Below are positions 7,197 to 61,280 of a stretch of 61,280 bases of DNA, one piece after another. Location: the NCBI GenBank assembly GCA_964546765.1, contig CAZJKV010000001.1, positions 1 through 61,280 on the forward strand. The letters run 5' to 3'. Position numbers and translations under genes: made by a program. How positions within the stretch are numbered: position 1 is the stretch's first letter; each line of letters starts with the position of its first letter. The DNA is from an uncultured Chromatiales bacterium (GTDB taxonomy: Bacteria; Pseudomonadota; Gammaproteobacteria; SZUA-140). A model generated the notes under the pieces. It was given only the letters and a program-made list of their open reading frames with translations. It was not told the DNA's origin and ran no database searches.

Positions 7197-7307
7197 TGTA
7201 TGTTTCTCCGGGGTGTTGGGGACATGTCGCGCCGTCCCCGCGCGGGGCGGTAGTACGGCGCCCCGCGGCGGATAGCCACGGGGCGCCTTGTCAGGTGTGA
7301 TTCTGGA

Positions 7308-7514
7308 TCAGGACTGGACGTTGACCTGGGTCGCCTGCGGGCCTTTCGCACCGACCTCGACTTCGTAGGAAACGCTCTGGCCTTCCTGCAGGGTCTTGAA
7401 GCCGCCGCTCTGGATCGCGGAGTAGTGGACGAAAACGTCCGCGCCGCCGTCCGCCGGGGAGATGAAGCCGTAACCCTTGGATTCATTGAACCACTTGACA
7501 GTACCTGTATTCAT
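7308..7514 (-). CDS. Cold-shock protein, CspA family
   Basis: 68 aa: [34 protein letters not shown], with canonical RNP1/RNP2 motifs of the cold-shock domain. Confidence 0.95.
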
Positions 7515-7719
7515 CTAGATCACCTCTGTATAGCTGTGACTTTGGGACTTCAATCGCATGCTGGCTCGGGAAGCTACAGAAGATACTGCGCGGGAACTTC
7601 TGATTGGATCTGGAGACGTGCGATTGAATCTACCTTGCCGATGCAGCGGACCCATGTCTATTCGTGGCCGTTGGTCGGTCGTGTTCGCCCGCCGCCGCGG
7701 GCCGGGCAAACCCATGGAA

Positions 7720-18349: not shown

Positions 18350-18434
18350 GCGCAGGTGGCGAAACAGGTAGACGCGCTGGTTTTAGGTGCCAGTGGGGCA
18401 ACCCGTGAGAGTTCGAGTCTCTCCCTGCGCACCA
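18350..18434 (+). tRNA. tRNA-Leu (anticodon UAG), class II with a long variable arm, CCA encoded
   Basis: Hand-folded. Acceptor stem GCGCAGG/CCTGCGC, D arm GCG..CGC, anticodon stem CTGGT/GCCAG with loop TTTAGGT, variable arm TGGGGCAACCCGT, T arm GAGAG-TTCGAGT-CTCTC, then ACCA. Confidence 0.9.
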
Positions 18435-44529: not shown

Positions 44530-45354
44530 TCAGGCGCTGCGCTTGTGCTCCGAGACCCGCCAGGTTCCGTTCTCGATGGTGACTTCGATGACATCGCCCT
44601 CGTTGTGTGCGGCCTGCGCCTGCTTGAGCTGCTTCGCCGGCCGGGCATGCGCCTGGCGATGTTTCCTCAGGATTTTTTCCCGCGCATTGTCGTAGGCATT
44701 CTGCGTCAAGACCCCGTTATCGAGCAGGCGGCGATGCTCGCACAACTCGACGCCGAGCCGCTGGTAGGGCTTGCGCGGGTCGTGTCTGTGGGCGGACTGC
44801 ACATGCTGGATCAGTGTGCGCAGGAAAGCCGTGAATTCTCCGCGCGACGGCGCGTTGTTGGCCATCTCCAGGAATACCGCGTCGCCGGAGACGCTGTGAA
44901 GGCGGACGAGATTGCGTGAGCGCAGGGAGAACAAGCCGAGCGCGACAAGGGTCGCGCAACCGAGCACGACGGTGACAGGAAGCCAGGGTTGCTGCAGCCA
45001 GGGCGTCGTGGTGAAAATGCTCAGCACAATCATGAAAGATACCGAGATGGCGAGGCCGCCGGCGATGTAAAGTGAGCGCCAGTCGGTGACCGAGAGCAGG
45101 TGCGGCGTCGGATCAAGGAATCCGAGATCGACCCAGTATCGCTTCGCCTTCTTCCACGGCCGTTTCTGGTGAATCGACAGGAATCGGCCGTCGAAGATCG
45201 TGTAATGGGCGGATTGCAACCGCAGGTGGCTGACCTGGAACAGTTCGATCAGTCTGGAAGGCTGCGGGCGCGGGTCGCCGGCCTCGGAGGCCATGCGAAT
45301 CTCGTCGTCAGGACGGGATGCGTGATTGCCGGTATCCGGATCTGTGGGCTTCAT
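44530..45354 (-). CDS. Hypothetical membrane protein (2 TM) with a SHOCT-like C-terminal segment
   Basis: 274 aa. Two adjacent TM helices lie mid-protein. LLDNGVLTQNAYDNAREKIL resembles a SHOCT motif. Confidence 0.5.
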   Translation of the reverse strand: MKPTDPDTGNHASRPDDEIRMASEAGDPRPQPSRLIELFQVSHLRLQSAHYTIFDGRFLSIHQKRPWKKAKRYWVDLGFLDPTPHLLSVTDWRSLYIAGGLAISVSFMIVLSIFTTTPWLQQPWLPVTVVLGCATLVALGLFSLRSRNLVRLHSVSGDAVFLEMANNAPSRGEFTAFLRTLIQHVQSAHRHDPRKPYQRLGVELCEHRRLLDNGVLTQNAYDNAREKILRKHRQAHARPAKQLKQAQAAHNEGDVIEVTIENGTWRVSEHKRSA

Positions 45355-45468: not shown

Positions 45469-46194
45469 TTACGGCGCGGCGGATCCGTTTGCCTGCCGGA
45501 GGGTCTCGCGCAGGGTCCCGGCCAGCAGGGAGTAGAGGGCTGTCACGTCGTCGCGGCGGCGGTTCAGCAATCCCTGGTTGAGTTCGAGTTCGATGCCGGC
45601 ATACTGGTCCGGGCGGAAGCGGGTGCGCAGGTAACGGGTCAGACCGTCGCTGACGCCGCGGTAGGGGAAATTCCGTCGCACGAGGAAGGCACTGTCGCGC
45701 GCAAGCGCCCGCTGCCAGGAGCGGCAAAGCCGGAGTTCGAGACGGCGCGCCGGATCGTAGAGCAGGGCGATGTCGGCATTGCGGACGACGCCGTCCAGCA
45801 CTGGCGTGAAACTGTGGAACGCGACATGCAACACACGATTTCCGCAGCCGATGAGTTCGGCAATGCGTGCTTCGACGCGATCGCGATGCGGCAGGTAATG
45901 TCGTCTGAGGATCTTCTGTTTCGCGTCCCGGGGCAACGCGCGCGTGATATCTGAAAAGAGCCGGGGATGGTGCGGCGAGCGATTGAGATCGACCAGCAGG
46001 CGCGTGGTCACGGCGTACAGCAATGGCGCAGCCAGCCTTCGTGCGAGCGCGCGGGCGCAGTCAAGCGCGCCGAGGTCGTAGCCGCTGTGTCCGTTCAGAC
46101 GCGACTGATGGCCGCGAAACAGCGCGCGCCACTCGGTCGGGACTTGATTGCCGCCGTGTTCGCAGCTCAGCAGCAGCGTGAGCGGTGCAGGCAT
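45469..46194 (-). CDS. N-formylglutamate amidohydrolase (FGase) family hydrolase
   Basis: 241 aa. LLLSCEHGGNQVP ..VDLNR.. and HSF motifs are typical of the FGase family. Confidence 0.8.
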   Translation of the reverse strand: MPAPLTLLLSCEHGGNQVPTEWRALFRGHQSRLNGHSGYDLGALDCARALARRLAAPLLYAVTTRLLVDLNRSPHHPRLFSDITRALPRDAKQKILRRHYLPHRDRVEARIAELIGCGNRVLHVAFHSFTPVLDGVVRNADIALLYDPARRLELRLCRSWQRALARDSAFLVRRNFPYRGVSDGLTRYLRTRFRPDQYAGIELELNQGLLNRRRDDVTALYSLLAGTLRETLRQANGSAAP

Positions 46195-46209
46195 TCTTGC
46201 GTCCGGGGG

Positions 46210-47466
46210 TCAGCCTTCGAACGACGTGCCGGCGGCCAGGCAGTCGCACAGCTGCCCGTAGACCTGCATCATGGCGTCGCGCGACGGCGTGGGATCGAGC
46301 GCAGCGGTGATGCGCCGTGCCAGCACGCCGCGCCGGACATAGAGATCGAGGATACGCCGCCTGGCCGCGTCGCCTCCGGCGACGTCCAGGCTCTCGAACA
46401 GGTGTTGCCACAGGTCGCGCGCACGGCACGGGCCGCGCTCCGGAAAGCCGAACACGGCCGGATAGCCCCGCTCCGTGATAATCGTCTCGTCGGCGTCCCG
46501 CTCGCAGTCGAGGAAGACCGCGTGCAAGGCCCGCGTGTCCCAGTCCTTCAGGCGTGCGATGCCGCACCAGGCCTCCTCGCAGAGCGCGCGAACGACCTCG
46601 ACGATCGCTGTCGCGAACGCGAGGTCTGCAGCCGGGCACTCCTGGGTGTCGAGGACGCGGATCTCGATCGCGTTACGGTCGAAGCGCGCGATGGCGCCAC
46701 GCGCATTGACCCATTCATGACGCAGTACGCCCTCGGGGTCATGCGGCGCGAGGTCGTCATAGATGCGCTGCAGCACTTCCCGTTCATAATCCCGGCGTGT
46801 GTAGACCGGTTCCGGGATCACCTGACCGCTCACCGAGGGGATGCGCCGGGAGTTGCCGCGGTAGACCGCAAGCCGGTTGTCGAGCGTGCCGGTCAGCCTG
46901 CCGTCCATGACCGGTGAGCTTGCCGAGAGTGCCGGCAGCAGCGGCAGTACGAAGCGTATCGCCGCGTGCAGGCGCGCGAATTCCGCATCGTCGGCAAACG
47001 GCAGGTTGATATGCATGCTCTGCAGGTTGGACCAGCCATGGCCCCGGCAATCGAAGATACTGTTGAAGGCCTCATAGACCGGATTGTATTCGTGGGGCCA
47101 CAGTCGGGTTTCGGTATGCGGGTCCATCCATGGGTGCATAGCGGTCGGCATCAGCCGCCCACCCTCCTCCTCGAGCAAGGTGTTAATGCGCGCGACATCA
47201 CGCTGGAAACAGTCATCGAGGCCGTCGAGAGATTTTGCAGGGCCGTTGGTCTTGAGCTCGATGACGTGCAGCGCAAGTTCATTCGACCAGGCGAGCGCGC
47301 CGGTCTCGATTTCGTTGACATAATCACCTGCCACCGATTTCAGTATGCGATCAGTCACCGGCAGAACCGACAATGATTCGCGTCCGACGATCATGTATTC
47401 AATCTCGATGCCGCAGACCTCGAACAGATGCCACACCGGGGCATCTTCAGCGCGGTCGTCTGTCAC
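46210..47466 (-). CDS. GCS2-family carboxylate-amine ligase (glutamate-cysteine ligase family 2-like)
   Basis: 418 aa. EVCGIEIEYMIV ... HVIELKTNGP ... SMHINLPF resemble YbdK/GCS2 motifs. It has a 20-nt overlap with the upstream gene end. Confidence 0.75.
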   Translation of the reverse strand: MTDDRAEDAPVWHLFEVCGIEIEYMIVGRESLSVLPVTDRILKSVAGDYVNEIETGALAWSNELALHVIELKTNGPAKSLDGLDDCFQRDVARINTLLEEEGGRLMPTAMHPWMDPHTETRLWPHEYNPVYEAFNSIFDCRGHGWSNLQSMHINLPFADDAEFARLHAAIRFVLPLLPALSASSPVMDGRLTGTLDNRLAVYRGNSRRIPSVSGQVIPEPVYTRRDYEREVLQRIYDDLAPHDPEGVLRHEWVNARGAIARFDRNAIEIRVLDTQECPAADLAFATAIVEVVRALCEEAWCGIARLKDWDTRALHAVFLDCERDADETIITERGYPAVFGFPERGPCRARDLWQHLFESLDVAGGDAARRRILDLYVRRGVLARRITAALDPTPSRDAMMQVYGQLCDCLAAGTSFEG

Positions 47467-48928
47467 CCTTGCGCTCCTCGATGCGGCTCAGGAATCCTTC
47501 CATGATTGTCGCGTACAGCGCATTCTTCAGTACGCCGTCCTCCGTTCCGGAGTCGATGTTCGGATTGTCGTTGATCTCGATCACGTAGGCCTTGTTATCG
47601 AGTTCCTTGACATCGACGCCGTACAGGCCGTCTCCGATAAGATTGGCAGCCCTGACCGCGGTCGTGACGACATGGGGCGGCGCCTCGCCGATCGCCACAG
47701 CCTCCGCGCGACCTTCGCGGGCCTTGCCGCTTTGATCGCGCTGGACGATCTGCCAGTGCCTGCCGACCATGTAATACTTGCAGGCATAGAGCGGCGTGCG
47801 GTTGAAGACGCCGATACGCCAGTCGAAGGCGGTCGGCATGAAGGCCTGAGCGATGATCAGGTCGGATTTCTCAAGCAGCCGCGACGCGGCTGTGATGAAT
47901 TGCGCCCGGTCTGCGACCTTGACGACGCCCTGGGAGAAGGCGCTGTCCGGCTGCTTCAGGATACAGGGCAGGGTAATCTTCGCGGACTGCGCCTGCATGT
48001 TGCCGCGCGTGATGATCGTGGTCTGCGGCGTCGGGATGCGATGACGAGCGAGCAGTTCGGCCAGGTAGACCTTGTTGGTGCATTTCAGTATCGAATCGGG
48101 GTCGTCGATGACGACCAGTCCCTCGATCTTGGCTCTGCGCGCGAACCGGTAGGTGTGATGATTGACGCCGGTAGTTTCCCGTATGAATAGTGCGTCGAAC
48201 TCGGCGATCCGGCCATAGTCGTTCTTGCCGATCATCTCGACATAGAAATCGAGTTGCTGCGCCGCACGGACGAACTTTCGCAGCGCCTTGACATCGGACG
48301 GTGGCTGGTCTTCGGCAGGATTATGCAGAATCGCAAGATCGTAGCGTTCGGTCTGACGCGACTGACGCGGTGAACGCTTGCCGGTGAAGTATTCGTTTGC
48401 CGCCTCGATGACGAATGATTTGTGATCGTCCGGGATATCATTGGTTGCGATCGGTCCGATGCTCTGAAACTGCCAGCTGCGATTGTGGATGAAGCGGGCG
48501 CGCAGCAGCGGGGCCGGAAACAGGTTGAACAGGCTCAGGCTCAGCCGGTCGTGGCGTTTGGCCAGATTTCTGCCGAAGTATATGCTGAGCACGAATTCCT
48601 CCGACTTGATCGGAGCCAGACTTTTCTGGATCAGTTCAAAGAGGTCATCGGACACGAATCTCGTGATGGTCTGCGACTTCATGTCCTGTATCGTGTTGAC
48701 GCTCGGCAGAGGCTTGTGTCCGCGCGCTTCAGCCAGCAGCGAGACGTAGTAACCATAGCTCTGGTAACGGTACGACCGCGACAGGTTGAATACCTTGGTT
48801 CCGCGCATGTCGCTGAAGCGTGGATCGGAGAGGTAGGACCTGGCGGCGACGACCTCCGCGCCGTGTGTCTGGAGCGGCCAGTCCTCCGGATTATTGACGA
48901 CGATCAGGATCGACATGGCGCCTGGCAA
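47447..48928 (-). CDS. RimK-type ATP-grasp ligase with an N-terminal RLAN-like domain
   Basis: 493 aa. The N-terminal ~200 aa (ILIVVNNPEDWPL..YRYQSYGYYVSLLAEARGH) are followed by a RimK-like ATP-grasp (ILKQPDSAFSQGV, GVDVKELDNKAYVIEINDNPNI). Confidence 0.85.
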   Translation of the reverse strand: MPGAMSILIVVNNPEDWPLQTHGAEVVAARSYLSDPRFSDMRGTKVFNLSRSYRYQSYGYYVSLLAEARGHKPLPSVNTIQDMKSQTITRFVSDDLFELIQKSLAPIKSEEFVLSIYFGRNLAKRHDRLSLSLFNLFPAPLLRARFIHNRSWQFQSIGPIATNDIPDDHKSFVIEAANEYFTGKRSPRQSRQTERYDLAILHNPAEDQPPSDVKALRKFVRAAQQLDFYVEMIGKNDYGRIAEFDALFIRETTGVNHHTYRFARRAKIEGLVVIDDPDSILKCTNKVYLAELLARHRIPTPQTTIITRGNMQAQSAKITLPCILKQPDSAFSQGVVKVADRAQFITAASRLLEKSDLIIAQAFMPTAFDWRIGVFNRTPLYACKYYMVGRHWQIVQRDQSGKAREGRAEAVAIGEAPPHVVTTAVRAANLIGDGLYGVDVKELDNKAYVIEINDNPNIDSGTEDGVLKNALYATIMEGFLSRIEERKGDRRPR

Positions 48929-49637
48929 CCGGTTTTTTTGCGGGTTCTATGATCAGGAGATTCGCGTCATGCGTCAGTATCCCGAGGAAGATCGAGCCCA
49001 GTACCCGGTCGATACTGGTTTCGTAATGCCTGCCCTTTGCCATCGGATTGGGGTCCAGTGGATCGATGACCAGTACCGCACGTGACTGGGGTTCGTAGCC
49101 GCCCAGGATCACGAAATGTCCGCTCGGTTTGCCGCGGATGTCGTCATAGACTGAGTCAGGTCCGAACTCGCGCGGGGTGTGATACAGGTAGGTCGCGCTG
49201 AGTCCAGTCAGTATCGGCGTCCCGCGCTTGAGATAATGGCGGATCAGCCCGGCCGTGAGCTCCTCGTACTCCAGTTCGCCGCCGAGTTCGAGAAAATTGA
49301 TATATCCGCGGGTAGCGAGCGTGACCGAGGTCTTCTTCCGAAATTTCATCTGGCGCTTCAGGCGCTCCCTGAGGTTGGTAACACCGGCTTCGAACCAGGA
49401 CGGATCGAACATCTGCAGGTTATAGGTATAGATCCTCGCGCGGTAGCCGCGTCGCAGTGCATGGCAGGCCAGGAATACGGCGAGCGTACCGCCATGATCC
49501 AGTCTCTGGATCTCCTCGATGATCTGTTCCAGCGGCAATTCGTCGTTGTAGTAGCGGTACATCGCATGGAGACAGGTCGGGCCGCAGGTCGCTTCGTCCG
49601 GCTGCGGGAGAATGTCGATGGCCATCCGGTTTTCCAT
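48891..49637 (-). CDS. Papain-fold (C39-like) cysteine peptidase homologue
   Basis: 248 aa. N-terminal QPDEATCGPTCLHAMYRYY has a Cys in a C39-like context, followed by GHFVILGGY (a His motif). The family call is by motif only. Confidence 0.6.
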   Translation of the reverse strand: MENRMAIDILPQPDEATCGPTCLHAMYRYYNDELPLEQIIEEIQRLDHGGTLAVFLACHALRRGYRARIYTYNLQMFDPSWFEAGVTNLRERLKRQMKFRKKTSVTLATRGYINFLELGGELEYEELTAGLIRHYLKRGTPILTGLSATYLYHTPREFGPDSVYDDIRGKPSGHFVILGGYEPQSRAVLVIDPLDPNPMAKGRHYETSIDRVLGSIFLGILTHDANLLIIEPAKKPVARRHVDPDRRQ

Positions 49638-49682
49638 TATGCGCTCAACGCCTTTCCTGCCCCAGATTTTGTCGGGTGCACT

Positions 49683-50873
49683 TTATATCAGTTTTTGCAG
49701 CTTGCCGAGATTTATTCTCAGCAGCTGCCGCTGCCGGGTCCAGGGGTCATCCCATGCGAGCCGCGCGCGCATCAGTCCGCGGCACAGGCGCAAAAGGCCT
49801 GTGACGTCGTCCAGGCTGACGAACTCGGGCGCCGGCCCGCCGGGGGCGCGGCAATCGGGGCCGCCCTCAAAGCCCTGGTTGTGATAGTTGCCGAGCGGCA
49901 CCGACACCCCGATCGCCGGTACGCCCCATGCGGTCATCGCGGTGGCCTCGCAGGAGCCGGCGTCCATGATGCGGCGCTGATGGGCGCCGGGCAGCACCCG
50001 CGCCGCGAGGTCGGTGAGCACCTTGAGCGCGCCGGGATCGAATACCGTGCGCCGGTCACCCAGACGCACCACCGGACCTTTGCCGATCAGCGCGCCGGGC
50101 AGCGTACGTGAGGCCTCGAGGCTGACGGCGACGACCGGGCGCCGGCGCTGCTGCAGCCACCCGGTTTCGAGGTGGGCGACCGCGCCGACGAAGCCGACTT
50201 CCTCGGCGCGGGTCAACAGGCCGATGAAGGGTCGGTCAACGGAGGTAGCGGAATGCCATAACCGGCGCGCCGTTTCGAGTATCGCGAACACCCCGACGAG
50301 ATCGTCGGCAGCCGGGCAGAATATCCGCTCGCGATGACACCAGGCCGGGGCGCGAAATTCAAAGCCGCCGAACAGCGCACGCGCGGCGGGACGCCTGCGT
50401 CCCTCGAACGAGCGCGCCGGCAACCGGAGCTCCGCGGACTCCATGGCCCATCCGGCTTCATTGACGCGGACCTTCATAAGTTTACCGCTGCCGACGACGC
50501 CACTGTCATCGACGAGGCGCATTCGCGCGCCGGCGAGATGCCGAACGGGCGATCCGCCGTACCAACGTATCTTCAGGCGGCCGTTGTCCAGCCACCGCTC
50601 GCCGTGATAGCCGGGATGATCCATGTGGGCGATGAACAGACGCAGCGGGTCCCGGGAGCGCCGGCGAAGCAGTCGCAGATACTCGGATTCCGATGCGGCG
50701 CCGACAACAATGTTGCCGGCAGGGTCGGCGAAGTGTGGTATGCGGTCATGCGCAAGTCGAGCGCAAACCCAGCGTATCACATGGCGCTCGCGAAACGGCG
50801 CCGTCGGCAGGGACAGCAGTTCGAGCAGAGCGGCGGGTCGAGTCGCGTTCAGCGAATTATCTGCCAAGTCCAA
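49683..50873 (-). CDS. M42/M28-like metallopeptidase homologue
   Basis: 396 aa. Candidate metal ligands lie in the order seen in M42 enzymes: FIAHMDHPGY, PAADDLVG, TRAEEVGFVGA. Divergent, and no HMM was run. Confidence 0.55.
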   Translation of the reverse strand: MDLADNSLNATRPAALLELLSLPTAPFRERHVIRWVCARLAHDRIPHFADPAGNIVVGAASESEYLRLLRRRSRDPLRLFIAHMDHPGYHGERWLDNGRLKIRWYGGSPVRHLAGARMRLVDDSGVVGSGKLMKVRVNEAGWAMESAELRLPARSFEGRRRPAARALFGGFEFRAPAWCHRERIFCPAADDLVGVFAILETARRLWHSATSVDRPFIGLLTRAEEVGFVGAVAHLETGWLQQRRRPVVAVSLEASRTLPGALIGKGPVVRLGDRRTVFDPGALKVLTDLAARVLPGAHQRRIMDAGSCEATAMTAWGVPAIGVSVPLGNYHNQGFEGGPDCRAPGGPAPEFVSLDDVTGLLRLCRGLMRARLAWDDPWTRQRQLLRINLGKLQKLI

Positions 50874-51039
50874 GGCTGGATCGAAACATGAAGTAATAAA
50901 AGTACAGCGCTACGGCAATCACGATAGTTGCTGTAAGCAATATCACGCCAATGCGTCCACCGCCACGCATTCTGTCACCCGGATGTGGCGTGCGCGATGC
51001 TTGCCGCACAGTTGTTATTCCAGTGTTCCGCGTATCCAT
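50857..51039 (-). CDS. Possible small membrane protein (60 aa, or 37 aa from an internal Met)
   Basis: It has one clear TM segment (IGVILLTATIVIAVALYFYYFMF) and overlaps the next gene start by 17 nt. It lies in an AT-richer divergent control region and has atypical codon usage, so it may be spurious. Confidence 0.25.
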   Translation of the reverse strand: MDTRNTGITTVRQASRTPHPGDRMRGGGRIGVILLTATIVIAVALYFYYFMFRSSLGLGR

Positions 51040-51120: not shown

Positions 51121-52887
51121 ATGTGCGGATTATGCGGAGAGATCCGCTTCGATCACAAGGATCCGTCGCTGGAAGCGATCGGGCGCATGAGCGATTCACT
51201 CGGACCCAGGGGTCCGGACGGCTCGGGGGTATTTCGTGCCGGTCCGCTCGCCGTCGGTCACCGCCGACTGAGGATCATCGACCTCAGCGAACACGCGCAA
51301 CAGCCGATGGTCGACAGCCACCTCGGCCTCGGCATTGTCTACAACGGCGCGATCTACAATTATCCGGAACTGAGACGCGATCTCGTCGCGCTCGGTCACC
51401 GGTTCTTTTCAAACGGCGACACCGAAGTCATCCTCAAGGCCTGGGTGGAGTGGGGCGCCGACAGTGTCAAGCGCTTCCACGGCATGTTTGCATTCGCGCT
51501 TTGGGAACGCGACAGCGGGCGGCTGGTACTCGCGCGCGACCGGCTCGGCATCAAGCCGCTCTATCTCGCCGAACTGGACGGCGGCCTGCGCTTCTCGTCG
51601 AGCCTGCCGTCGCTGCTCGCGGCGGGTGGCGTGGACACCGACATCGACCCGGTAGCCCTGCACCATTATATGACCTTCCATTCGGTCGTTCCTGCGCCGC
51701 ACACGCTGCTGAAGGGCGTGCGCAAACTGCCGCCGGCGACCCTGACGGTCATCGAGCCCGACGGTCGCCGCAGCGAACGCGTCTATTGGCACCTCGACTA
51801 CGATCGGGACGACGGTGAGCGCAGTTTCGAGGATTGGCGCGACGGCCTCGGGATTGCGCTGAAACGCGCAGTCAAACGGCGCCTCGTTGCCGATGTTCCG
51901 GTCGGCGTGCTGCTGTCGGGCGGTCTCGATTCGAGTCTGATTGTCGGCCTGCTGTCCGAGGAAGGACAGCACGGTATCAATACCTTCTCTGTGGGATTCG
52001 AGCACTTAGAGGATGAAGAGGGCGACGAGTTTCGTTATTCCGATATCATCGCCGGGACCTACGAGACCGATCACCACAGGATTTTCGTCGATACCGGCGA
52101 GCTGCTCGAGCATCTGGAACCGTGCATAGCAGCGATGTCCGAGCCGATGGTCAGCCATGACGTCATCGGGTTTTACCTGCTGTCGCGCAAGGTTTCTGAA
52201 CATGTCAAGGTCGTGCAGAGCGGTCAGGGCGCTGACGAGGTGCTCGGCGGCTATCACTGGTATCCGCCGATGCTCGAGAGTCGCGAACCGGTCGGCGACT
52301 ATGCCCGCGTATTCTTCGACCGCGACCACGCCGAATATCGCGAGGCCGTCGACCGGCGTTTTCACGGGGACGATTACAGCCTGCGTCTGGTCAAATCGCA
52401 CTTTGCACAGGCCGGAGCGAGCCGTGCGATCGATCGCGCGCTGCGACTCGATACCACGATCATGCTGGTCGACGACCCGGTGAAAAGACTCGACAATATG
52501 ACCATGGCCTGGGGGCTGGAGGCCCGGGTGCCGTTTCTCGACCACGAGTTGGTCGAGTATGCCGCGCGCATGCCGGCCGAGCACAAGGTTGCGCAGGGCG
52601 GCAAGCATGTTCTCAAGGAGCTCGCCCGCAGACATATCCCCGCCGCGGTGATCGACCGTCCCAAGGGTTATTTTCCGGTGCCGCAGCTCAAGTACATGCA
52701 GGGTCCGTACCTAGATCTCGCTCACGACGTGCTGTCGGATTCGCGCGCACATGCACGCAAACTGTTCCGGCCTGAATATTTGAAGCGCATGCTCGACGAT
52801 CCCGCGGGACGGATCACGCCGTTGCGGGGATCGAAGTTGTGGCAGATCGTGCTACTCGAATACTGGCTGCAGGTGCAGGGGGTATGA
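51121..52887 (+). CDS. asnO: N-acetylglutaminylglutamine amidotransferase (asparagine synthase-like, glutamine-hydrolysing)
   Basis: 588 aa. MCGLCGE Ntn-Cys start and the SGGLDSS PP-loop. It is followed by ngg and an M42 gene, the canonical NAGGN gene order. Confidence 0.9.
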   Translation: MCGLCGEIRFDHKDPSLEAIGRMSDSLGPRGPDGSGVFRAGPLAVGHRRLRIIDLSEHAQQPMVDSHLGLGIVYNGAIYNYPELRRDLVALGHRFFSNGDTEVILKAWVEWGADSVKRFHGMFAFALWERDSGRLVLARDRLGIKPLYLAELDGGLRFSSSLPSLLAAGGVDTDIDPVALHHYMTFHSVVPAPHTLLKGVRKLPPATLTVIEPDGRRSERVYWHLDYDRDDGERSFEDWRDGLGIALKRAVKRRLVADVPVGVLLSGGLDSSLIVGLLSEEGQHGINTFSVGFEHLEDEEGDEFRYSDIIAGTYETDHHRIFVDTGELLEHLEPCIAAMSEPMVSHDVIGFYLLSRKVSEHVKVVQSGQGADEVLGGYHWYPPMLESREPVGDYARVFFDRDHAEYREAVDRRFHGDDYSLRLVKSHFAQAGASRAIDRALRLDTTIMLVDDPVKRLDNMTMAWGLEARVPFLDHELVEYAARMPAEHKVAQGGKHVLKELARRHIPAAVIDRPKGYFPVPQLKYMQGPYLDLAHDVLSDSRAHARKLFRPEYLKRMLDDPAGRITPLRGSKLWQIVLLEYWLQVQGV

Positions 52888-52894
52888 TGCCGCC

Positions 52895-54637
52895 ATGACC
52901 GGGAGCCATCGAATACGCAACCGCCTCGAGCGCGCGCAGTCGCCGTCGCTGCGGCCCTGGGACAGCTCGCAGGGCAGGCACGCGCGTCGCATCAAGGGCT
53001 GTAACGCCGTGGTCGACTGCGGCTGGGGGCGATTGATCTTCGGCCAGACCTTCGACGACGATCGCACGCTCGCCGATGTCATCAAGCAGGAAAGCCCTGG
53101 AAAGCGCGACATCGCGATGTATCTTCGCAACCCCCATGTCGTGATATCGCAATCTCCGCAAAGCGTGTTTCTGGATCCTTCCCATACCTATCGGCTGTGG
53201 CTAGACCGCTACCGCTCGCCGCACCTTCGCCCGAGAGGCTTTATCGTCCGCCTGCTGAACAGTCGTCAAGACGCGCGCGCCGTGAACGAACTATACCGGC
53301 GTCTGCACCTGGTGCCGCCGGGTGAGAAATTCGTATGGCGCCAGCGCACCTCGCGCGTGCTGACCTACCTCGTCGCAGCGGATGCCGCCGGCGGCGTTGT
53401 CGGCGTCGTTTCCGGCGTCGACCATCACGAGGCCTTCGATGACCCCGACAACGGCTCCAGCCTGTGGGCGCTCGCTATCGACCTGCAGGCCGATGTCCCC
53501 GGCATCGGCGAGGCCCTGGTGCGCCAGCTCGCGGAATATTACCTGACGCGCGGCCGCAGTTTCATGGACCTTTCCGTGATGCATGACAACGAGGCCGCCA
53601 TTGCGCTCTACGACAAGCTCGGGTTCGTGCGCGTTCCGGTTTTCTCCCTGAAATGCAAGAACACCTACAACGAGCCTCTCTATACCGAATCGGCTTCCGG
53701 GGACAGGCTCAATGCCTACGCCGAGATCATCGTCAACGAGGCGCGCCGGCGGGGTATCGCGGTTGAGGTGCTCGACGAGGATAACAGCTACTTTGCACTG
53801 ACCTGCGGCGGCCGCACCGTCGTATGCCGCGAGTCCCTCAGCGAGATGACGACAGCGATCGCGATGAGCCGCTGTCAGGACAAGTCGGTGACCCACCGCC
53901 TGCTTACCGCTGCCGGGCTGCGCGTACCGGCGCAGGTGCGAAGCGATCGCGAGGATGACGGCCTGGACTTCCTGTCACGCCACGGTCGAATCGTCGTCAA
54001 GCCCTCATTCGGAGAGCAGGGGGCAGGCATCAGCGTCGACGTGCGCACGCCGGATGGTCTGCGCGAGGCCTGGCGGATCGCTGCAAACTCCGGCGGCGGA
54101 CGGGTACTGCTGGAGGAGTACGTGGAGGGTATGGACCTGCGCATAGTGGTCATCAATTCCGAAGTCGTTGCCGCAGCGTTGCGTCATCCGGCAAGAGTGA
54201 CAGGCACGGGACGGCACAAGATCCGGTCGCTGATAGAAAAGCAGAGCCGGCGCCGCTCGGTCGCGACCAAGGGGGAGAGCCGGATCCCGCTGGACGGCGA
54301 GACCCTGCGCTGCGTCAGGGATGCCGGTCATGAACTCGACGATGTCCTGTCGCGCGGCGAGGAACTGCTCGTGCGGAAGACCGCGAACCTGCATACCGGG
54401 GGCACCCTCGAGGATGTCACCGACCGTCTTGCACCGGTTCTGGGAGAGGTTGCCGTTCATGCAGCGCGGACCCTGGACATCCCGGTCGTCGGACTCGATC
54501 TGCTCGTGCCGTCGGTCGAGGGCGGGGAGTATGTCATCGTCGAGGCAAACGAGCGGCCTGGACTCGCCAATCATGAACCCCAGCCGACCGCCGGGCGTTT
54601 CATCGACCTGCTGTTTCCGCACACGGCCACGGTCTGA
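52895..54637 (+). CDS. ngg: N-acetylglutaminylglutamine synthetase (GNAT plus ATP-grasp bifunctional)
   Basis: 580 aa. An N-terminal GNAT-like region (..IALYDKLGFVRV..) is followed by an ATP-grasp (VVKPSFGEQGAGISV, VIVEANERPGL). Confidence 0.9.
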   Translation: MTGSHRIRNRLERAQSPSLRPWDSSQGRHARRIKGCNAVVDCGWGRLIFGQTFDDDRTLADVIKQESPGKRDIAMYLRNPHVVISQSPQSVFLDPSHTYRLWLDRYRSPHLRPRGFIVRLLNSRQDARAVNELYRRLHLVPPGEKFVWRQRTSRVLTYLVAADAAGGVVGVVSGVDHHEAFDDPDNGSSLWALAIDLQADVPGIGEALVRQLAEYYLTRGRSFMDLSVMHDNEAAIALYDKLGFVRVPVFSLKCKNTYNEPLYTESASGDRLNAYAEIIVNEARRRGIAVEVLDEDNSYFALTCGGRTVVCRESLSEMTTAIAMSRCQDKSVTHRLLTAAGLRVPAQVRSDREDDGLDFLSRHGRIVVKPSFGEQGAGISVDVRTPDGLREAWRIAANSGGGRVLLEEYVEGMDLRIVVINSEVVAAALRHPARVTGTGRHKIRSLIEKQSRRRSVATKGESRIPLDGETLRCVRDAGHELDDVLSRGEELLVRKTANLHTGGTLEDVTDRLAPVLGEVAVHAARTLDIPVVGLDLLVPSVEGGEYVIVEANERPGLANHEPQPTAGRFIDLLFPHTATV

Positions 54638-54651
54638 TAAGCTCAGTCATC

Positions 54652-55761
54652 ATGAAATCGTTGCCCGTCGACCACGCCTATGTGCTCGATCTGCTGAAAT
54701 CCCTGCTGACGACTCCGAGCCCGACCGGATATACCGACCGCGTCGTACATCTGGCCTGCGAGCAGCTCGAGCAACTCGGTATCGACTACGAGATCACCCG
54801 CCGCGGAGCGATACGCGCGACACTGAAGGGCGCGGTGTCGAGCCCCGACCGGGCGATCGTCGCCCATCTCGACACACTCGGCGCCATGGTCAAGGAACTG
54901 AAGCCGGACGGGCGCCTGCGTGTCGTCCCTATCGGTCACTGGAACGCGCGATTCGCCGAAGGTGCGCGTGTGACGATCTTCAGCGATTTCCGTTCCTATC
55001 GCGGCACGATCCTGCCACTAAAGGCCTCCGGCCATACCTTCGGACCCGAGATCGACAAACAGCCCTGCAACTGGGACAACCTGGAAGTGCGCATCGACGA
55101 GGTCGCGTTCAGTCTCAAGGATCTGATGCGCCTCGGCATACATGTCGGCGATATCATCGCGATCGATCCCGATCCCGAGTTCGCCGAGAACGGCTTCATC
55201 AATTCACGCCACCTGGACGACAAGGCAGGGGTTGCGATCCTGTTCGGCGTTGCAAAGGCGATCGTCGATGCCGGGATCGTTTTACCGGTCGACTGCCACC
55301 TGTTGTTCACGATCTCGGAGGAGGTCGGATCCGGGGCCTCGCACATCCTGCACCAGGATGTCGCCGAGATGGTCACCGTCGACAATGGCACGACGGCTGC
55401 GGGCCAGAACTCGAGCGAGTTCGGCGCAACGATCGCGATGGCCGACATGACCGGACCCTTCGACTACCATCTGACCCGTCGCATGCTTCAATTGTGCCAG
55501 GAGTTCGGCATAGAACATCAGCGTGACATATTCAGGTATTATCGGTCCGACAGCGCCGCCGCGGTCGAGGCGGGGAACGATCTGCGCGTTGCGCTGGTCG
55601 CCTTCGGCGTCGATGCCTCGCACGGCTACGAGCGTGTCCACTGGAACGCGCTGCAATCGCTGATTCAGTTGCTGACCGTCTATGTGCAGAGTCATCCGCT
55701 CTATGGCCGCGACCGGAACGCCCTCGGACCGCGTGCCGGCTTTCCGATTCAGCCGAGTTGA
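54652..55761 (+). CDS. M42-family peptidase of the NAGGN osmoprotectant system
   Basis: 369 aa. VAHLDTLG, NSRHLDDKAGV, ISEEVGSGA and GVDASHGYER are M42 metal-site motifs. It is the third gene after asnO-ngg. Confidence 0.85.
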   Translation: MKSLPVDHAYVLDLLKSLLTTPSPTGYTDRVVHLACEQLEQLGIDYEITRRGAIRATLKGAVSSPDRAIVAHLDTLGAMVKELKPDGRLRVVPIGHWNARFAEGARVTIFSDFRSYRGTILPLKASGHTFGPEIDKQPCNWDNLEVRIDEVAFSLKDLMRLGIHVGDIIAIDPDPEFAENGFINSRHLDDKAGVAILFGVAKAIVDAGIVLPVDCHLLFTISEEVGSGASHILHQDVAEMVTVDNGTTAAGQNSSEFGATIAMADMTGPFDYHLTRRMLQLCQEFGIEHQRDIFRYYRSDSAAAVEAGNDLRVALVAFGVDASHGYERVHWNALQSLIQLLTVYVQSHPLYGRDRNALGPRAGFPIQPS

Positions 55762-55824: not shown

Positions 55825-57195
55825 ATGTCTGAGCTACAATATGACGTAGTCGTGATCGGCAGCGGTCCGGGGGGCGAGGGCGCTGCGATGAAGGCCTCGA
55901 AGGAGGGTCGGCGCGTCGCCGTCGTCGAGGAATTCGGCGAAGTCGGCGGCAATTGCACCCACCGCGGCACGATCCCGAGCAAGACGCTGCGCCAGAATGT
56001 CCAGCTGGTACTCGAGAGCGGCGCCCGAAACGGGCAGCGCTATCCGGACTTGCTGAAGACCGCGCGCGGGGTAATCAATAAGCAGGTCAGGATGCGTACT
56101 GACTTTTACGCTCGCAACGTCGTCGAGGTCATTCACGGGCGTGCCACGTTCGCCGACGACCATACAGTCGAGGTTGCGAAGGAGGGCGGCGCCCGGGACC
56201 TGCTCAAGGCCGATGCCTTCGTCATCGCGACCGGATCCCGGCCCTACTGGCCGACGGATGTCGATTTCAGCCACCCCAGGATACTGGACAGCGACACAGT
56301 ACTCGAGCTAGACGAGAGTCCGCGCTCGATCTCGATCTACGGCGCCGGCGTCGTCGGCTGCGAGTACGCGTCGATCTTCCGCAGCCTCGGTATCAAGGTC
56401 AACTTGATCAATACCCGCAGTCAGTTATTGTCGTTTCTCGATGACGAGATCATCGATGCGCTGAGCTATCACCTGCGCGAGCAGGGTGTGCTGATTCGCC
56501 ACAACGAGGAATACGAGAAAGTCGAGGCCGACGACGATGGCGTGACCGTCCATCTCAAGTCGCAGAAGCAGATCCGGACCGATTACCTGCTGTGGGCGCA
56601 GGGACGCACCGGCAACTCGGATCGCATGGGTCTCGAGCACATCGGCGTCGCGCTCAACGAGCGAGGATCTGTCATCGTCAACGATCGCTACCAGTCCAGC
56701 CGCGAGCACATCTACGCCGTCGGAGACATCACCGGCTATCCCAATCTTGCAAGCGCGGCCTATGACCAGGGCCGTTTCGCCGCAACCCACCTCATCCACG
56801 GCGTCTGCGAGACTGGCCTCGTCGAGCATATCCCGACCGGCATCTACACGATCCCCGAGATCAGTTCGATCGGCGAGACCGAGCGCGCCCTGACCGCCGC
56901 GAAGGTCCCCTACGAGGTCGGTCATTCGCTGTTCCGGCATCTCGCACGCGCCCAGATCACGAGCAAGACTACCGGCATGCTGAAAATCCTGTTCCATCGC
57001 GAGTCGCTGAAAATACTCGGGATTCACTGCTTCGGAGCGCAGGCCGCGGAGATCATCCACATCGGGCAGGCGATCATGGCCCAGGAGGGGGACGCCAACT
57101 CGCTGATGTATTTCATCAATACCACGTTCAACTACCCGACGATGGCCGAGGCCTACCGCGTCGCGGCGCTGAACGGCCTGAATCGCGTCCAGTGA
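55825..57195 (+). CDS. sthA: Soluble (Si-specific) pyridine nucleotide transhydrogenase
   Basis: 456 aa. [17 protein letters not shown] and [13 protein letters not shown] lack the redox disulfide (CTHRG in place of CxxxxC), as in SthA/UdhA. A second GxGxxG is [12 protein letters not shown]. Confidence 0.9.
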
Positions 57196-61225: not shown

Positions 61226-61280
61226 TGGTGGAGCCGAGGAGGATCGAACTCCCGACCTTCGCATTGCGAACGCGACGCTC
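61226..61280 (-). tRNA. tRNA-Ala (anticodon CGC), 3' portion only; the 5' end lies beyond the window
   Basis: The reverse complement reads ...TCGCG-TTCGCAA-TGCGA-AGGTC-GGGAG-TTCGATC-CTCCT-CGGCTCC-ACCA. It has anticodon loop TTCGCAA, a canonical T arm, and U70 placed to form the Ala identity pair G3:U70. Confidence 0.8.

Follow-up and report, generated by a model that had tools for sequence, protein, structure and literature searches.

A conserved RLAN-RimK/GCS2 ligase cassette with adjacent hydrolases in an uncultured Chromatiales bacterium and across bacterial phyla

Gene neighbourhoods that join an RLAN-RimK ligase to a GCS2-family ligase were reportedly predicted by comparative genomics in the 2009 amidoligase survey of Iyer, Abhiman, Burroughs and Aravind, which is also said to be the basis of the Pfam family PF14401. 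One such neighbourhood was analysed here in a stretch of 61,280 nucleotides (nt) of DNA from an uncultured Chromatiales bacterium of the Gammaproteobacteria (GenBank assembly GCA_964546765.1, contig CAZJKV010000001.1, positions 1 to 61,280), hereafter called the window. Five co-directional open reading frames (ORFs) on its minus strand, at 45469-50873, encode in the order of reading an M42-like metallopeptidase, a C39-like papain-fold cysteine peptidase, an RLAN-RimK ATP-grasp amide ligase, a GCS2-family carboxylate-amine ligase and a hydrolase of the FGase (N-formylglutamate amidohydrolase-like) family. An earlier note, made from the letters of this DNA, had taken the five genes for one operon that builds, trims or recycles a small glutamate-type peptide or peptide tag. 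According to a passage in a later paper from the Aravind group, the 2009 survey saw operonic linkage of ATP-grasp ligases with a COOH-NH2 ligase or a GNAT acetyltransferase (PMC4431377). Set against the neighbourhood as presented in that passage, the genes described here show the same combination of RLAN with a RimK-type ATP-grasp domain and the same linkage to a COOH-NH2 (GCS2) ligase or GNAT, and nothing essential differs. Added by the present analysis are the split into core and accessory genes, a set of substitute hydrolases and a GNAT-DUF3335 fusion. Literature searches found no paper characterising the module, that is, the C39-like, RLAN-RimK, GCS2 and usually FGase genes, and the claim of the earlier note that no product or role has been demonstrated therefore stands. 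A paper on the Klebsiella amidoligase CfmP was set aside; it concerns a TupA-like enzyme unrelated to the module.

Several described systems follow a comparable logic. Glutathione synthesis, like the module, combines a GCS-superfamily ligase and an ATP-grasp ligase in a two-step assembly of a peptide, and with regard to glutathione turnover the C39-like protein resembles Alr0975, while an EgtC-like GATase_4 Ntn amidohydrolase is found in some loci. However, the module ligases fail the GshA, GshB and EgtA models, and the module is sporadically distributed, occurring also in Gammaproteobacteria, whose normal way to glutathione is the classical route. In glutathionylspermidine synthetase/amidase (GspSA), the bond formed by an ATP-grasp amide ligase is hydrolysed by a cysteine amidase of the papain superfamily to which the ligase is genetically coupled, which gives a regulated cycle of synthesis and hydrolysis. 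GspSA unites both activities in a single polypeptide, and its domains come from families other than those of the module (CHAP, Gsp synthetase); the likeness to the module is one of logic, and no sequence relationship is claimed. Pupylation pairs the GCS2/glutamine-synthetase-like ligase PafA with the bond-reversing deamidase/depupylase Dop. In contrast, neither a conserved Pup-like tag gene nor proteasome or Mpa genes are located near the module, and the module hydrolase is not homologous to the ligase.

The closest parallel on the side of the ATP-grasp ligase is RimK, as known from Escherichia coli and, with RimB, from the rim operon of Pseudomonas, where an ATP-grasp alpha-L-glutamate ligase is likewise encoded beside a dedicated peptidase by which its product is trimmed. 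Both systems share the ATP-grasp fold and the equivalents of the RimK residues R64, R189 and N262, whereas the window ligase carries an extra RLAN domain of 180 amino acids (aa) and scores far below the cut-off of the RimK family. Furthermore, the module peptidase has a papain fold and RimB is retropepsin-like, the module adds GCS2, and no link to S6 is evident. Ngg (GNAT plus ATP-grasp) and the mammalian RIMKLA/B follow a related scheme, in which an N-acylating enzyme and a RimK-type ligase yield an N-acyl dipeptide, and GNAT-RLAN-RimK fusions and GNAT neighbours also occur in the present family. The window module differs from Ngg in having GCS2 instead of GNAT and in its RLAN domain, which is unrelated to any part of Ngg; a true Ngg is encoded next door.

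All five ORFs were recovered at the coordinates and on the strand that the earlier note had given, and its five family assignments, checked with hidden Markov models (HMMs), were all above the Pfam gathering scores. The C39-like peptidase (48891-49637, minus strand; 248 aa) matched PF13529 with 40 bits and PF03412 with 27 bits, and the M42-like metallopeptidase (49683-50873, minus strand; about 390 aa, start uncertain) matched PF05343 with 56.3 bits. The remaining genes, all on the same strand, are RLAN-RimK (47447-48916, the ORF extending to a TTG at 48928; 489 aa), GCS2 (46210-47466; 418 aa) and FGase (45469-46194; 241 aa). From the M42-like gene to the FGase gene the spacings are a 45-nt gap, a 38-nt overlap, a 20-nt overlap and a 15-nt gap. 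The tight coupling proposed from these distances is borne out by the coordinates, with one correction: RLAN-RimK most likely starts at the ATG at 48916 and not at the TTG at 48928, because every homologue in the databases has a length of about 489 aa, and the overlap with the C39-like gene then amounts to 26 nt instead of 38 nt. The start of GCS2, with GAGGAG as ribosome-binding site, lies within the 20-nt overlap with the end of RLAN-RimK. The ORFs are genuine genes and not chance ORFs; the homologue counts are 8000 of 8000 scored for RLAN-RimK, 7593 for the C39-like protein and 2381 for the M42-like protein. Consensus scans for internal promoters and terminators gave nothing above chance level in the cluster, and neither a riboswitch nor a known leader RNA was found upstream of it.

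For the analysis of gene neighbourhood conservation, 16 diverse RLAN-RimK homologues were aligned and one genome per species was scanned. At least 598 matches were confirmed in species-representative genomes, and the best 80 loci, which come from at least 12 phyla, were kept; their gene content was counted by tblastn and by all-against-all clustering of ORFs. These 80 loci span Gamma- and Betaproteobacteria, Desulfobacterota, Myxococcota, Planctomycetota, Nitrospirota, Bacteroidota/Balneolales and Fibrobacterota as well as Acidobacteriota, Verrucomicrobiota, Sumerlaeota, Omnitrophota, Nitrospinota and Spirochaetota; cultured carriers include Thiobacillus thioparus DSM 505 (L020), Blastopirellula marina DSM 3645 (L022) and Pontibacter (L062, L072). 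The C39-like gene is located directly upstream of RLAN-RimK in 71 of the 80 loci and GCS2 directly downstream in 70, and the usual FGase follows GCS2 in 43 (40 of the 58 loci with room downstream). Order and strand of the four genes are identical throughout, and the median spacings of -4, 14 and 7 nt compare with -26 (or -38), -20 and +15 nt in the window. From Planctomycetota to Gammaproteobacteria the module proteins keep about 50-60% identity. The four module enzymes are translationally coupled and their catalytic residues are kept; RLAN-RimK is the anchor gene of the module and FGase its fourth, facultative gene. The M42-like gene, on the other hand, is absent from all 80 distant loci according to tblastn. 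Of the five-gene linkage that had been proposed, the part comprising the C39-like gene, RLAN-RimK, GCS2 and usually FGase thus holds in at least 12 phyla, whereas the M42-like gene drops out; likewise, the two ligases stand, and the three hydrolases are reduced to two, the M42-like gene being outside the conserved system.

No further recurrent partner was detected by clustering of the flanking ORFs of at least 90 aa in the 80 loci, in which the other recurrent ORF clusters were antisense shadows of the module genes. Similarly, 2610 ORFs of 25-110 aa around 84 loci were clustered and revealed no precursor, carrier or tag peptide beyond the closest relatives, and the 108 genes that immediately flank the loci on either side showed no recurrent partner in Pfam scans. 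The module, with three to four genes, is therefore self-contained. At least about 600 species-representative genomes carry this fixed association of two amide hydrolases with two ATP-dependent amide ligases of different mechanism, a biochemical system of considerable extent in bacteria. The window copy is an ordinary instance, one of thousands, of this widespread gene neighbourhood.

The RLAN-RimK protein matched RLAN (PF14401) with 160.7 bits (cut-off 25) and RimK (PF08443) with 29.2 bits (cut-off 21). With its 489 aa and the additional RLAN domain it contrasts with the single-module RimK of about 300 aa. The score for the family model rimK_fam (TIGR00768) was 55.9 bits, compared with a cut-off of 143.4, and the S6-ligase equivalog NF007764 was absent from the NCBIfam matches of the protein. 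In the AlphaFold2 (AF2) model, the C-terminal 300 aa form an ATP-grasp domain that is nearest to RimK, LysX/ArgX and Ddl, and the graspetide ligase PsnB is among the Foldseek matches of this part. The ATP/Mg residues K321, D435, E447 and N449 are invariant. Invariant as well are R246, R367 and N449, which in a profile alignment correspond to R64, R189 and N262 of Pseudomonas aeruginosa RimK, residues that touch the poly-glutamate chain (PMC10092738); the N-terminal poly-glutamate contacts S7, R8 and S14 of the same enzyme fall outside the aligned profile region and hence allow no comparison. The RLAN domain is extremely conserved, with a mean column identity of 75% and a near-invariant surface. 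Relatives of RLAN were found neither in the PDB (profile search) nor in Pfam beyond RLAN itself nor in Ngg; a fold search with the whole protein was dominated by the ATP-grasp part, and a full-library search found only 795 clusters at 50% identity.

The GCS2 protein matched PF04107 with 107.5 bits (cut-off 21), and its metal motif GxExE (G19, E21, E23) as well as E63, H67 and E70 are invariant. Its scores for the curated models were 54.3 bits for YbdK (TIGR02050, cut-off 176.4), 32.4 bits for the cyanobacterial/plant GshA (TIGR02048, cut-off 249) and 18.3 bits for EgtA (TIGR03444, cut-off 370.8). Among solved structures only weak profile matches to plant glutamate-cysteine ligase were obtained. 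The earlier note had considered that the ligases might fall into families with a demonstrated product; both stand outside such families, because their scores are far below the RimK, YbdK, GshA and EgtA cut-offs.

The C39-like protein is a stand-alone, cytoplasmic protein with a helical insert of about 100 aa. Its Gln/Cys/His/Asp catalytic set is complete, Q12, C18, H174 and D192 being invariant in an alignment of 30 homologues. The AF2 model has a papain fold (predicted local distance difference test score 83), and its top Foldseek matches are C39 peptidase domains of the double-glycine type (6mpz, 3k8u, PCAT1), followed by the glutathione-cleaving, phytochelatin-synthase-like Alr0975. A second cysteine of the TCGPTC motif, C22, is also invariant in the 30 homologues and lies four residues past the catalytic C18; as pure speculation, it might switch the nucleophile on and off by redox state, in the manner of glutathionylspermidine amidase. 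No ABC exporter was found in the C39-like protein or its flanks, and no conserved small precursor ORF, by ORF clustering and Pfam scans of the flanks.

The FGase protein matched PF05013 with 74.7 bits (cut-off 28.9), and its CEH motif and further residues are conserved. Neither orthology to HutG nor a histidine-utilisation context is indicated: the protein had no NCBIfam match, its nearest structure is the uncharacterised Atu2144 (2odf, 8e-25), and no hut gene was present among the neighbours examined. Several of the loci without the usual FGase have another amidohydrolase beside the module: a divergent second FGase subfamily takes its place in L064 and L070, GATase_4, a class-II Ntn amidohydrolase, is encoded downstream in L003 and upstream in L009 and L010, and L047 and a further locus have an adjoining gene for an AstE/AspA amidohydrolase. 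The named members of these substitute families act on N-acyl-glutamate or N-acyl-aspartate or on gamma-glutamyl amides. In addition, transporters of the MFS family abut the module or are close to it in L021, L036 and L037, and two further ones are located upstream.

GCS2 also has an apparent substitute. In L071, L073 and L074 a gene for a GNAT acetyltransferase is adjacent and translationally coupled to RLAN-RimK, and the proteins P0510 and P0454 are GNAT-RLAN-RimK fusions. On an Azospirillum brasilense megaplasmid (NZ_CP059450.1; L092, 4763-7470) an unannotated 408-aa GNAT-DUF3335 fusion is translationally coupled to RLAN-RimK. DUF3335 is homologous to the C39-like protein of the window, including the catalytic motifs (hhalign E-value 9.5e-5); GNAT-DUF3335 with RLAN-RimK thus adds a third architecture, present in a model organism that can be cultivated, and a papain-fold enzyme is a frequent partner of RLAN-RimK. 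Because GNAT takes the place of GCS2 beside RLAN-RimK or fused to it elsewhere, the comparison suggests that GCS2 and GNAT are alternative second, N-acylating partners of this ligase.

Relatives of RLAN-RimK in further model organisms are, like the Azospirillum copy, still annotated as hypothetical. The experimental work found in the literature touches only relatives of the solo or GNAT type. In P. aeruginosa (NZ_CP133752.1; L093, 5905-7494) a solo homologue of 529 aa is encoded beside pagP, genes for a glutamate/aspartate ABC transporter and ggt, and from this gene order we infer that it is PA1345, a gene with a candidate CpxR box whose product has been listed as hypothetical and ATP-binding (PMC12802237). 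The record NZ_CP133752.1, labelled as a plasmid, seemingly carries chromosomal DNA. In Francisella tularensis, FTT0178c ('rimK', 490 aa) adjoins the acetyltransferase gene FTT0177c; deletion of FTT0178c left virulence unattenuated, and type B strains carry disrupted copies of the two genes (PMC2675058, PMC2682660). Judged from its length only, FTT0178c is taken to be of the RLAN type.

The reading that we place first, if tentatively, is that the cassette of C39-like peptidase, RLAN-RimK, GCS2 and usually FGase serves to make and trim a small peptide of the N-acyl- or gamma-glutamyl-aminoacyl-glutamate type. GCS2, as characterised enzymes of its superfamily do, would activate the gamma-carboxylate of glutamate and couple it with the amino group provided by an amino acid or amine, so that a gamma-glutamyl (N-acyl) compound is formed. 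RLAN-RimK, like RimK, MptN, CofF and LysX, would form a second amide involving glutamate, with a short N-acyl/gamma-Glu-X-Glu(n) peptide as the result. This two-step logic would be the one known from glutathione (GCS and ATP-grasp ligase) and from N-acetylaspartylglutamate (NAAG) and N-acetylglutaminylglutamine amide (NAGGN), in which N-acylation is combined with a RimK-type ligase. The C39-like peptidase would undo or trim the bond made by RLAN-RimK, as RimB does for RimK or the CHAP amidase for glutathionylspermidine synthetase, and the FGase-type N-acyl-glutamate amidohydrolase would do the same for the bond made by GCS2. The size of the product pool or the chain length would then be set jointly by synthesis and hydrolysis, and the cassette would have spread through many phyla by horizontal transfer. 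Since each ligase sits beside a hydrolase, in the order hydrolase, ligase, ligase, hydrolase, the product could be trimmed or recycled; the trimming of the poly-glutamate product of RimK by RimB is a precedent for such a ligase-peptidase pair (PMC10092738). The replacement of GCS2 by GNAT fits a second enzyme that supplies the N-acyl group. The conservation, the self-containment and the intact catalytic residues of the cassette, the substitute amidohydrolases, the MFS transporters, the GNAT partners and the Alr0975-like fold all speak for this reading, and the glutamate-amide theme already seen by the earlier note is common to all enzyme families present. The product could be a so far undescribed gamma-glutamyl tripeptide, glutathione-like or NAAG-like, in the cytoplasm of members of a dozen phyla.

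Several points weigh against a small peptide as product. The proposed chemistry is drawn only from family-level precedents, and the substitute hydrolases and the transporters each occur in just a few loci. Identities of about 60% across phyla, as found for both RLAN-RimK and the C39-like protein, are unusually high for small-molecule tailoring enzymes and would also fit enzymes that recognise a conserved protein encoded at another locus. For the RLAN domain, extremely conserved and without a detectable relative, substrate docking, regulation or catalysis are all possible functions. Finally, the nearest ATP-grasp relatives in structure and sequence, RimK (acting on S6) and LysX and ArgX (acting on LysW), all act on protein C-termini. 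These relatives, together with the very high conservation and the near-invariant RLAN surface, would be accounted for by a reversible protein modification, the main rival explanation, which we consider less likely but still a serious one: RLAN-RimK would add glutamates to a conserved protein whose gene lies elsewhere, at its C-terminus or on a side chain, with RLAN for docking, GCS2 would form an isopeptide like PafA, and the C39-like protein and FGase would process or erase the modification like RimB and Dop. The RimK-RimB pair offers a precedent here as well, C39 peptidases cut peptides and proteins after Gly-Gly, and the GCS2/glutamine-synthetase-like ligase superfamily includes both PafA and Dop. 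However, no gene for a tag, carrier or target is linked to the module in the 80 loci, ORFs of 25-110 aa included. The ribosomal protein S6 gene rpsF, which the earlier note had likewise not seen nearby, was not found in the window in a search with an approximate query sequence, and the residues S7, R8 and S14 with which RimK contacts poly-glutamate lie beyond the profile-aligned region. Moreover, the named members of the FGase, AstE/AspA and GATase_4 families act on small N-acyl amino acids, and MFS transporters are linked to the module in some loci. Spelled out in full, a bacterial writer-eraser system of reversible glutamylation, in which RLAN docks, RLAN-RimK and GCS2 write and the C39-like protein and FGase erase, comparable with the tubulin TTLL/CCP enzymes and with pupylation, would be slightly less probable. 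Very improbable is a role in the maturation of ribosomally synthesised and post-translationally modified peptides (RiPPs) or bacteriocins, in which a double-glycine leader would be cut off by the C39-like protein and the core cross-linked, as happens in graspetides, by the ATP-grasp ligase. Leader-peptide-cleaving domains do head the fold matches of the C39-like protein and PsnB is among the matches of the ligase, but the affinities of the ligase are to RimK and LysX and not to graspetide ligases, no conserved precursor was revealed by the clustering of 25-110-aa ORFs, no ABC exporter is fused or adjacent, and the conservation across phyla is far above that usual for RiPP clusters.

A further alternative is suggested by the surroundings of the cluster. 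The divergent plus strand at 51121-55761 carries the complete canonical trio for the osmoprotectant NAGGN, namely asnO (51121-52887; TIGR03104, 967 bits), ngg (52895-54637; TIGR03103, 827 bits) and the NAGGN M42 peptidase gene (54652-55761; TIGR03106, 564.7 bits), all above the cut-offs. The five genes and the trio might form one osmoadaptation unit that recycles, trims or elaborates NAGGN-type Gln/Glu dipeptides, with the M42-like protein as a third hydrolase. Both systems handle Glu/Gln amide bonds, neither a terminator nor a promoter was predicted in the 45-nt gap between the M42-like and C39-like genes, and L083 (87% identity) repeats the arrangement of the window with NAGGN beside the module. 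We nevertheless regard such a unit as improbable. The adjacency is confined to the window and relatives with 87% identity; L081/L082 lacks asnO and ngg and keeps the NAGGN M42 gene alone, which suggests a recent deletion of asnO-ngg there or an insertion in the window lineage. No NAGGN genes are located near the module in L084, L085, L089, L090 and L091, and asnO and ngg gave no tblastn match in any of the 80 distant loci. A functional link between module and NAGGN was rejected for this reason, and the co-regulation with asnO-ngg that had been suggested earlier finds no comparative support. The contexts of the M42-like gene point in the same direction. Beside the module it occurs only in L081/L082, L083, L084, L085, L089 and L090, that is, in the gammaproteobacterial clade of the window. 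In L089 (7789-7995) and L090 (8512-8718) a cold-shock (CSD) gene on the opposite strand intervenes between the M42-like and C39-like genes, so that the M42-like gene cannot share the transcript of the module there. In L086, L087 and L088 its orthologues (57-62% identity) lie among unrelated genes away from the module, and in L091 (about 66% RimK identity) the four module genes are present without it. The M42-like gene was therefore rejected as a core component, and its position is best read, from these comparisons, as synteny within the clade and not as module membership. The M42-like protein is also only remotely related to the NAGGN M42 peptidase, with 25.3 bits for TIGR03106 (cut-off 397.75) and 25 bits by BLASTP against the true NAGGN M42 of the window; a recent paralogy of the two window genes was rejected on the basis of the latter score. 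The true core of the module is four genes, without the M42-like gene and NAGGN, and knowing it should make experiments cleaner.

The M42-like gene, the 274-aa protein described below and the NAGGN operon are local neighbours outside the proposed mechanism. In this genome the 45-nt gap may permit read-through or co-transcription of the M42-like gene with the module. In L084 and L085 the gap between the M42-like and C39-like genes is filled by a gene for an acidic protein of 99-103 aa with a likely signal peptide. The M42-like protein is probably an active peptidase, because its metal ligands (H83/H86, D190/191, E224-E225, E253 and H331) are intact. Its start is uncertain, TTG at 50873 and TTG at 50867 both fitting the family alignment. 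In the public annotation of the contig the gene has 313 aa (P0242) and would lose the metal-ligand motif AHMDH; it is probably mis-called there, because the gene has no ATG or GTG start.

The synteny of the clade comprises sthA (in the window at 55825-57195 on the plus strand, following the NAGGN trio), the M42-like gene, the module, the gene for the 274-aa protein, and YkuD and NUDIX genes. The 274-aa protein is encoded at 44530-45354 on the minus strand, separated from the FGase gene upstream by a gap of 114 nt. This clade-specific companion follows FGase in every relative of the clade examined and is absent from L091 and from the 80 distant loci; it had no Pfam, NCBIfam or PADLOC match, and two hydrophobic helices and a charged C-terminal tail were noted by eye. 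More generally, the PADLOC models of anti-phage defence gave no match among the six proteins scanned. Between asnO and the M42-like gene, upstream of the latter, an ORF of 60 aa with one predicted transmembrane helix is located at 50857-51039 on the minus strand. It is found only in the closest relatives and is called as a gene in L081 and L083, where its C-terminal half is conserved and its N-terminal half diverges with indels, a pattern as would be expected of a genuine small membrane protein. Elsewhere in the window, a cspA thermoregulator RNA element (RF01766, 92 bits) was detected at 7255-7617 on the minus strand, a tRNA-Leu at 18350-18434, and, where the contig ends, a truncated tRNA at 61229-61280.

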